This document shows positions 17,597 through 56,000 of a DNA stretch of 64,000 nt, one piece after another. The translations under genes were made by a program, and so were the position numbers. The stretch spans positions 3,608-67,607 of the forward strand of contig JAHFJR010000003.1 of the NCBI GenBank assembly GCA_023245775.1, given 5' to 3'. Source of the DNA: Candidatus Peribacteria bacterium (GTDB taxonomy: Bacteria > Patescibacteriota > Gracilibacteria > Peribacterales > Peribacteraceae). The notes below the pieces were generated by a model. It did no database searches. It was not told where the DNA came from and was given only the letters and a program-made list of their open reading frames with translations. Within the stretch, counting starts at the first letter, position 1. Each line of letters opens with the position of its first letter.

Positions 17597-19101
<1,505 letters not shown>

Positions 19102-53006: not shown

Positions 53007-56000
53007 TTACTTCTTCTTCTCAAATTTGACCTCGATCTGCATCTCTTCGATCTCGACCGTCTGGGCTTTCGCTTTCGTCTCGCCGAGTGTTGCTTTCGTC
53101 TCACTCAAGACCAGTTCCTGATGCTGAATGAGAATCGCATCTGCTCCGGTGAGTGACAGCGTGATCGTGTCCGTGAACTCAAGCCCTGCATCTTTCCTGA
53201 GCACCTGAATCGCATGGATGAGTTCACGGGCTTGCCCCTCGAGTTTTAGAGCATCTGTTAGGGCTGTATTGAGGCTGACGACGATGCCATGCTCAGATGC
53301 GACGCAGCCGTCTTCTTTCGTTTTGAAGACGACCGTGGCTTCGCTTCCGGTGATCGTTTCGCCAAGGACAATGAAACCACCCTCTTTCTCCTCGAAATTT
53401 CCTTCTTTGCCGGCACGGATCAATTCCTGTACTTTCGAGCCGAGACGCGGTCCGACTTTGCGCGCATCGATCTGCAGGATCTTCGTTGCGATTGCAGCGG
53501 CATCCGAGACGGCGATCACCTGTTTCACATTCAGCTCCTCTTTGATGAGCTCCTTGATGATCTGGCCGTCCTCGGAGGGCGGCAGTGCGACGGTGACGGA
53601 TTGCAGTGGCGTGCGTACGGCAATCTTGGCATCGGCTCTGAGTTTGAGACCGAGCGTCACGATGGAGCGCGTGTTATCCATGCGCGTGAGGATGCTCTGA
53701 TCTTCATCGCTGAGTTCGCAGCTGACTGGCCAATCCGTGAAGTGCACGGATCCGTGGTCTTCGGCAACGAGATTCAGGTAGATCGCTTCGCTGATGAAGG
53801 GGCAGAATGGAGCGAGAAGCTGCGCATTGGCAAGCAGAACTCGGTAGAGTGTGTCGAGAGCATCTTTCTGCTCGCCGGACGAAGCCTTGGCGAAGTCTGG
53901 CTCCTGTTCATTTTCGGATCCTAACTCTTTACCTGCAAGACGGCGGCGACTCAATCTCACATACCAGTTTGTGAGGTCATCGATGGATAGACAGAGGTGT
54001 GCACAAGTGGCCGAGAGATCGTAGCCATCCAGTTCCTTCGTCATGTTATTCACGAGCGTCTGTGTCTTCAGAGTGATCCACCGATCGAGCAGGTTCTTGC
54101 TCTGCGCATTCTTCAGAGAGAAATCCAGTGATGGTTTCCACTTGGCGGCATTTGCGTACGTGACGAACAGGCGATACGCATGCCAGAGAGGAAGCAGAGT
54201 AGAGCGCACGGTTTCCTCCACGAGCTTCTCGGAGAAGCGGAGATCTTCGCCTCGGACGGCAGGGGAAGCCATGAGGGCAAATCGCACCGCATCAGCTCCA
54301 TGTCGATCGGCAACCAGCGTCGGTTCGGGATAGTTCTTGAGTCTCTTACTCATCTTTTTCCCATCTTCCGTGAGCACCGTGCCATTCACGATGCAGTGGC
54401 GGAACGCTGGACAGTTGAAGAGTGCGCTACTCAGAACGGTGAGTGTATAGAACCAGCCGCGCGTCTGATCCAGTCCTTCGGCGATGAAGTCGGCGGGGAA
54501 ACCTTCAGGAATATCTTTCTTCTCACTCTGTCCTTCGAAGGGGAAGTGACCCTGCGCATAGGGCATCGAGCCTGACTCGAACCAGCAGTCGAGGACCTCC
54601 GGGATTCTCTGCATTTTAGGAACGATCGTGAACGTGTACGCATGCCCATTCTTCGGCTCCTCTTTCATCGCATCGTCATAGGACATGCCGGTGACGTACT
54701 TCATCGCACGTACCACACCGCCATGACCCACGAGAAGCACTTTCTTTCCTGCAAATTCCTTCAGCAGCAGATCGGAACCGCGTCGGATTCTTGCCGTAAA
54801 TTGTTCGAAGGATTCTCCTCCTCCATCGGGCGTGACGCGTAACCAAGTCGGTGTCAGTCCTTTCGGTTTCTTCTTCGGTCCGTGCTTCGTCATCACGTCA
54901 TCAATCAGCGTATTGGACCATGTACCGAGGTGGCGCTCGCGAAAGATGTCGTACTTTCCCGCGTATTCAATCTTCAATTCTTTACTGAGGATGGTTGCCG
55001 TTTCCACGGCACGCTTCAGATCCGACGAGAGAATGACATCGAAGGTCTGTCCTTTGAGCTTTTCTGCTGCTGCTTTGGCTTGCTCTTTCCCGATCTTATT
55101 GAGAACCATGTCGATATTGCCGCCTTGGGTCAATTTCTGTTTGTTCAAATCCGTCTCCCCATGCCGTACGAGTGTCAGCTCCACGGACTTTCCCCGTCCG
55201 ACCGCATCCGGGCGGGCACTTTCCCCGTCCGACCGCATCCGGGCGGGCACTTTTCCCTTTTCACTCGCCCAGACAATCTCGTCCACGGTCTCTTTGTGCA
55301 GATCCATCTGCGCGTTCTTCTCGTGATCCCAGTAGAAGGTGCGATGACCGGCGGTTTCTGGATAGGGCTGATGGACGATCTTGTGTTTCTCCTGTCCCGT
55401 GAAGAAATGGATCGCGTTCATGACGAGGTCGGCGTGCGTTACGACCACGATTGTCTCACCTTTGTGCTTCTTCAGGATCTCATCGAAGAACGCACTGAGC
55501 CGGAGTTCGGCCGAGTCCCATGTCTCCATTCCTTGAAAATGGAACACGCTCTCCACTTGATTCTTCGAGAGTTTGTGTGCACGGCGTTCCTTGATGAAGG
55601 TCAGATCGTCGAAGTCGATGTGTTTGCCTTCGTACTCACCGAAGTCGAGTTCACGGAGCCTTTCATCGATCAGAATCGTTGCGTCCGTTGCGGCGGCGAC
55701 CGCTCCGGCTGTCTGTTGTGTCCGAAGAAGGGGCGAACAGTAGATGGTTTTAAGAGGAAGGCCGGCTTGATTCTTCACGGCTTCTGCAAGCTCTTTCGCT
55801 TGTCCTTGCCCACGCTCAGTGAGCGGAGTACCTGGGACTTTTCCCTGATAGATCGTCTCCACATTTCCCTCACTCTCACTGTGGCGTGCGACGATGATCT
55901 TCGTGAACCTCTGAGGATCTTTGGACACAAGTTCATCGCGTGAGCCGATGACCTCGATCTCTCCCGTGATCGCGTTCCGCCAGATCGGAAGTGGCGTTCC

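Follow-up and report, generated by a model that had tools for sequence, protein, structure and literature searches.

The window analysed here, a stretch of 64,000 nucleotides of Candidatus Peribacteria bacterium (contig JAHFJR010000003.1, positions 3,608 to 67,607), carries on its minus strand ileS, the gene of isoleucyl-tRNA synthetase (IleRS), as an open reading frame (ORF) of 1480 amino acids (53007..57449, protein P0001 in the ORF list and by translation), in which a 31-nt unit occurs twice in tandem. Most probably, these units are two neighbouring copies of a dispersed 24-nt hairpin mini-element, designated here core A, which sit in the heptanucleotides of a linker predicted to be disordered; the mini-element is best read as SDR/REP/RPE-like. 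Instead of the earlier interpretation, according to which a duplication was needed to keep the gene in frame, we see here an ancestral linker coded by heptamers, into which two mini-hairpins have been inserted without disturbing the frame. An out-of-frame tandem in an essential gene looks hazardous, but it becomes ordinary once it is read as heptamer plus 24-nt core.

According to Pfam, P0001 contains tRNA-synt_1, two stretches of His_Phos_1, Anticodon_1 and DUF5915; the catalytic domain of this IleRS is interrupted by two His_Phos_1 modules. The first module covers about aa 516-708 (55326..55904) and the second aa 758-942 (54624..55178), these and all ileS features below being on the minus strand. 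In an AlphaFold2 model that covers aa 515-960 and draws on 27 sequences, both phosphatase domains reach a predicted local distance difference test score (pLDDT) above 90, while residues 718-752 (55194..55298; residues 204-238 of the modelled fragment) remain below 50. The repeat encodes aa 734-754, nearly all of them within this low-confidence segment, and both Pfam and the model place it between the two His_Phos modules, in line with the first-pass annotation of this DNA, which had located it in the linker ahead of the second phosphatase. Most homologs have 8-13 aa between the DEIxW and VELTLVRHG motifs, and one has 23; the 28 aa in the genome under study (G000) form the longest of the 17 segments measured. 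The residues encoded by the repeat lie in this linker of variable length, which, by the model, is predicted to be disordered.

Tandem Repeats Finder (TRF) reports an array at 55187-55257 (period 31, 2.3 copies, 97% matches, score 135), and a pattern search locates two perfect 31-nt copies, 55187-55217 and 55218-55248 (number expected from shuffled sequences, 0). In the unit phase used below, which is shifted by 2 nt from that of the first-pass annotation, the 5' copy in coding sense (GTG + core + GAAA) occupies 55220..55250 and is read as VPARMRSDGE(S), and the 3' copy occupies 55189..55219 and is read, with the frame shifted by one, as (S)ARPDAVGRGK. The coding strand thus gives ...WASEKGK-VPARMRSDGES-ARPDAVGRGK-SVELTLVRHGETD (linker peptide as predicted from the translation: SDGESARPDAVGR), so that the reported back-to-back identity of the copies and their translation in two different frames both hold. 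The supposed 9-nt partial third unit (55249-55257) is something else, namely part of two neighbouring degenerate heptamers, GTGAAAA GGGAAAA (55251..55264), a remnant of a heptamer array 5' of the units, comparable to the GTGGAAA arrays flanking other copies.

The 31-mer is composed of GTG + CCCGCCCGGATGCGGTCGGACGGG + GAAA, in other words, of one GTGGAAA heptamer split by the 24-nt core, with a one-G ambiguity at the boundary between the two. Core A folds into an 8-bp hairpin with the stem CCCGTCCG/CGGGCGGG and a loop of 8 nt; its copies in ileS, of eight codons each, lie at 55224..55247 (copy 1) and 55193..55216 (copy 2), as derived from the genome search (C9:58831-58854 and C9:58800-58823, minus 3607). 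As RNA, the core is more stable on the strand antisense to ileS (-15.4 kcal/mol) than on the other strand (-12.3 kcal/mol); on the antisense strand a G-U pair replaces a C-A mismatch. Folding also allows mutual pairing of the two tandem units.

This anatomy explains the behaviour of the reading frame. As 31 cannot be divided by three, a change in the number of units truncates the product: in silico, one unit leads to a stop at aa 748 (...GESPWS*), as had been predicted, three units to a stop at aa 795, and zero units to a first stop at aa 764. The cores, on the contrary, are frame-neutral, adding eight codons each and 16 residues together, and the ORF remains open after deletion of one of them (1472 aa) or both (1464 aa). 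The claim that the duplication is required for the frame is therefore correct as far as the count of 31-nt units is concerned and fails for the cores. The same DNA is read as PARMRSDG in the first core and as RPDAVGR in the second, and this phase shift exists because a 7-nt heptamer lies between the cores, not because of any need for two copies.

The comparison of orthologous loci, which the first-pass annotation had proposed, provides the empty site. Between DLHKETVDEIVW, a segment of IleRS, and the second His_Phos domain, the linker already consisted of GTGGAAA heptamers. In G005, the source of the closest ortholog (77% identity), the repeat site reads ...GTGGAAA GTGGAAA GTCCGTAGAG, encoding KVESGKSVELT, with two heptamers and no cores; the DNA alignment of G000 with G005 shows a single 48-nt gap (2 x 24) inside the heptamers. 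Removal of both cores in silico turns the G000 linker into ...EKGK-VESGK-SVELT, matching the peptide of G005, and several other homologs encode KS[AD]KVESGKS at the linker. Since G005 and other relatives encode KVESGKS at the repeat site, the two underlying heptamers of ileS are, judging by sequence, ancestral. The pair of G000 and G005 is a clean filled/empty pair, recording a precise gain or loss of a 24-nt element.

In other relatives the ileS linker is likewise written in 7-nt repeats, AAATTCC in G002 and G003 (NSKTEIPNSKNA) and AAGTCAC in G013, and the linkers coded in this way (loci L011, L015 and L016) display a 7-residue periodicity (NSKTEIP-NSKNA, KSQVVRH-KSQV). AAATTCC dimers, with one mismatch allowed, number 64 in G002 and 17 in G003 (G000, 4; G005, 3), and exact GTGGAAA dimers number 30 in G000 (G005, 4; G002, 2; G003, 0). 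The ileS linker of each species is written in the dominant heptamer of its own genome.

Core A is not confined to ileS. G000 is a short-read metagenome-assembled genome of 1.207 Mb in 42 contigs with 52.9% GC, and it contains 13 copies of the 31-mer at no more than 3 mismatches, 9 of them exact (reversed-pattern control, 0); the exact unit is present at 8 loci besides ileS. What had been taken for a private tandem duplication is, consequently, a pair of adjacent identical units from a dispersed family. Twelve of the 13 copies are positioned as GTG-core-GA(A/C)A within or abutting GTGGAAA runs, as in GTGGAAAGTGGAAAGTGGAAA-unit-GTGGAAAGTGG. With 46 TRF arrays and 30 exact dimers, GTGGAAA predominates among the period-7 repeats of G000. 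Arrays of period 7 number 345 altogether, those of period 5 only 96 and those of period 8 only 108. The same heptamer position, GTG-core-GAAA, is occupied by a second element, core B, which is 21 nt long (CCTGCCTGCCGGACAGGCAGG) and present in at least 10 copies; the lengths of both cores are multiples of three.

Core A is translated in frame within several Pfam-supported genes, encoding GT4 (two genes), Der/EngA, a FemAB-family protein, Sua5/YrdC and an alpha/beta hydrolase, as well as in a 1274-aa, putatively DnaE-like ORF; three or four copies are located between genes or 5' of the true start. All six frames occur as predicted protein: PARMRSDG, RPDAVGR, PPGCGRT, PVRPHPGG, PSDRIRA and RPTASGR. 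A second direct tandem of the unit is found in the inter-GTPase linker of der (C28:29562-29620), where it has diverged into a 31-nt copy with a G>A change beside a 28-nt copy with a 3-nt deletion. At the corresponding sites, the Der and GT4 orthologs of seven relatives lack both heptamers and cores. Heptamer arrays are depleted in ORF interiors yet far from excluded from them: 38 of 78 lie deep in crude ORFs, against roughly 85% expected by our own estimate from a coding density of 91%. In streamlined genomes of the candidate phyla radiation (CPR), with their little intergenic space, micro-repeats inside proteins shape linkers. As a separate observation, GTGGAAA arrays often form inverted pairs 20-80 nt apart, i.e., long palindromes resembling miniature inverted-repeat transposable elements, mostly between genes (e.g., C7:71261/71312, C20:42487/42525 and C21:16251/16306).

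The core also occurs beyond this genome. Among 30 relatives, G002 has two exact copies, G008 two copies with one change and G014 one copy. A scan of the genomes of 185,579 species for exact core A gave 12 loci, where about 0.01 would be expected by chance (our own estimate); nine belong to Peribacteria/Peregrinibacteria and three to Candidatus Scalindua (Planctomycetota). In other Peribacteria the identical core is embedded in different heptamer arrays, GAAAATG-core-GAAAATG and TAGCTTG-core-TAGCTTG, which indicates that the 24-nt core is the unit gained and the arrays are the receiving sites. The Scalindua copies (L026, L027 and L028, from anammox genomes) are intergenic, one or two per genome, and no nuclease gene was found near them; with these properties in view, we dropped Scalindua as a reservoir of the element. 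Two of the three Scalindua genomes share flanks, the core being followed by TCGGGCAGGCTGA. An identical core in a second phylum raises the question of how so small an element moves.

As to the fusion of IleRS with phosphatases, it is family-wide and older than the repeat. Full-length IleRS with two His_Phos (phosphoglycerate mutase-like) modules, of 1437-1553 aa and 57-77% identity, is present in at least 12 genera of Peribacteraceae, and other families of the class have one His_Phos module in IleRS or none; the database search yielded 219 such proteins under the names Candidatus Peribacteraceae or Peregrinibacteria, that of Ca. Peribacter riflensis among them. Because the fusion is found without the repeat in at least 12 genera and in over 200 proteins, the repeat neither created nor rescued it, and the suggestion of a compensatory event was rejected. 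Some IleRS homologs additionally contain a GNAT acetyltransferase domain (P0004, 1618 aa; P0086).

Several other explanations of the tandem have to be weighed. It could have arisen by local slippage, one 31-nt unit of the dispersed family being duplicated in place and the frame being restored by the loss of one heptamer (31 - 7 = 24). The two ileS units are indeed identical and adjacent, a second tandem pair is present in der, and slippage does occur, as heptamer arrays differ in length between species. However, since 9 of the 13 copies genome-wide are identical, identity of the units is no argument for local copying, and the number of adjacent pairs is in no clear excess: two were seen, against 0.5-1 expected by a rough estimate for 13 random hits in about 150-300 heptamers. 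Moreover, slippage would have to shift the frame twice, or act through one complex event, in an essential gene present as a single copy, and the site in G005 already has exactly two heptamers where the cores sit. We consider this scenario rather unlikely.

The origin of the sequence, a short-read metagenome-assembled genome in 42 contigs, might suggest that the true copy number differs and that the assembler made the tandem. But the two units, with 62 nt in all, would fit within a typical read, 8 other loci have the exact unit, der has a tandem pair that has diverged, and only two units give an open frame of 1480 aa colinear with the orthologs, which makes an artefact highly improbable. Finally, a change in unit number would truncate the protein before the second phosphatase and the KMSKS half, and the tandem could on this ground be regarded as a phase-variable contingency switch or as the compensatory event already mentioned. 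Apart from the occurrence of the fusion without the repeat, the cores are frame-neutral, and ileS is the only IleRS gene in G000, so that the off state would be lethal; we find such a role barely credible.

Returning to the insertion of core A into heptamers, the heptamer-coded ileS linker existed first, and we suppose that cores were then gained in each of its last two heptamers, presumably after the split from the lineage of G005. The insert would have been tolerated as neutral and would have contributed nothing to the origin or maintenance of the fusion. The sites of the core are characterized by a fixed insertion point, the lack of target duplication, the existence of filled and empty sites, and frame neutrality. 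Two routes could lead to such sites: sequence-targeted single-strand insertion of HUH/RAYT type, 3' of a short target and without target duplication, or short-patch gene conversion between arrays, with the heptamers serving as flanking homology. G000 encodes two Y1_Tnp proteins of RAYT-like type that have the HUH and Y motifs, at C25:~18223-18660 (within C25:18150-18850) and C26:1440-1874 (within C26:1380-1930). Both genes are flanked by inverted GC-rich hairpin repeats, and to the left of the one on C25 the flank carries a core-B-like hairpin (CCTGCCTACCGGCAGGCAGG). A DUF559 endonuclease gene (C32:5650-6365) is bracketed by two direct composites of nested hairpins, of ~140 nt each, which include a core-B variant. 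The RAYT-type genes are candidate mobilisers only.

A number of points weigh against our interpretation. Polarity is not proven, and G005 could have lost the cores instead of G000 having gained them. The copy number of the unit rests on one assembly: the search for contigs encoding P0001 found no independent contigs of the G000 species, and neither the left junction nor the unit-unit junction turned up in scans of metagenome contigs. The gene map is a crude longest-ORF map supplemented by Pfam. No transposase could be linked to core A, as the hairpins that flank the RAYT-like and DUF559 genes are other ones, and a connection of core A with these genes was dropped. Stop triplets are absent from both strands (all six frames) of the unit, the heptamer and core B, but 18% of genomic 31-mers are also stop-free on both strands; this trait alone is therefore weak evidence, and we ceased to regard it as significant.

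A bolder proposal, which we put forward only tentatively and hold to be more doubtful than probable, is that core A is a free-moving 24-nt element, identical across Peribacteraceae genera and Scalindua, which targets one heptamer position without target duplication, the arrays acting as landing pads that repeatedly colonise the same protein linkers (in ileS, of at least four species). The mobiliser might be a host RAYT-type enzyme or some other mechanism. If so, essential genes of minimal CPR genomes would be receiving new linker sequence from selfish micro-repeats. Elsewhere in the window, two short-repeat arrays resembling AAAGGAAAC lie inside a uvrA-like ORF (63034-63127), inverted with respect to each other; together they form an imperfect palindrome of ~94 nt that belongs to a family other than core A.

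Among known repeats, REPs have been described inside replication and repair genes, often as dimers, adding 20-30 aa in loops and linkers, and are considered neutral there on account of this location (Di Nocera et al., 2013, PMC3733652). Core A resembles such intragenic REPs, and likewise Rickettsia palindromic elements (RPE), in being a small palindromic repeat of known genes, read through as extra residues, though its pairs are direct, in contrast to the inverted REP dimers. Tagged REPs have an unpaired GTAG or CGTC tag at one end, and those of the CGTC type a stem of 8-9 bp starting with A/T pairs, a loop of 4-5 nt and a CCA tail (PMC3733652). Core A has no unpaired tag, its CGTC being inside the stem, starts with GC from the first stem pair, has an 8-nt loop and lacks the CCA tail. 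In the REPIN/RAYT system the repeat flanks the RAYT gene and occurs as inverted doublets (Bertels and Rainey, 2011, PMC3116915). The G000 genome is similar in its dispersed GC-rich hairpins and in the two Y1_Tnp genes with inverted hairpin flanks; core A itself flanks neither RAYT gene, forms singlets or direct tandems and has only 13 copies. Because the tag features are absent and no RAYT gene is flanked, we file core A neither as a tagged REP nor as a REPIN.

As to the RPEs described by Ogata et al. in 2000, RPE-1 is reportedly 100-150 bp long. Core A shares with them the insertion in frame into protein genes (IleRS, two GT4 genes, Der, FemAB, YrdC and the hydrolase) and differs in its size of 24 nt, its position inside a heptamer and its Peribacteraceae host. 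The STRRs of Mazel et al. (1990) are heptanucleotide tandem repeats of heterocystous cyanobacteria. They are similar to the GTGGAAA arrays as species-specific tandem 7-nt repeats dispersed over the genome; the unit sequences differ, and the arrays studied here are stop-free and form protein linkers with 7-residue periodicity.

SDR1-8 of Nostocaceae, the subject of work by Elhai et al. in 2008, are dispersed elements of 21-27 nt, some of them hairpins, which reportedly occupy fixed positions inside tandem heptameric and other repeats and are present or absent at otherwise conserved sites without target duplication. No transposase is known to be linked to them. Core A (24 nt, 13 copies) and core B (21 nt, at least 10 copies) are comparable in length and copy number to the SDRs; 12 of the 13 copies of core A are likewise nested in heptamers, with other arrays in other genomes, and filled and empty sites are likewise seen, in ileS of G000 versus G005 and in der and GT4 versus seven relatives. 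As differences from the SDRs, many copies of core A are translated in frame inside essential genes, and the hosts are CPR Peribacteraceae and Scalindua rather than Nostocaceae. The SDR work is cited in PMC3116915 (ref 43) and PMC5861425 (ref 20), and in HIP1-rich cyanobacteria outside Nostocaceae no SDR-like repeat was found (PMC5861425). By analogy, the SDRs of Nostocaceae appear to be the closest analogues of core A.

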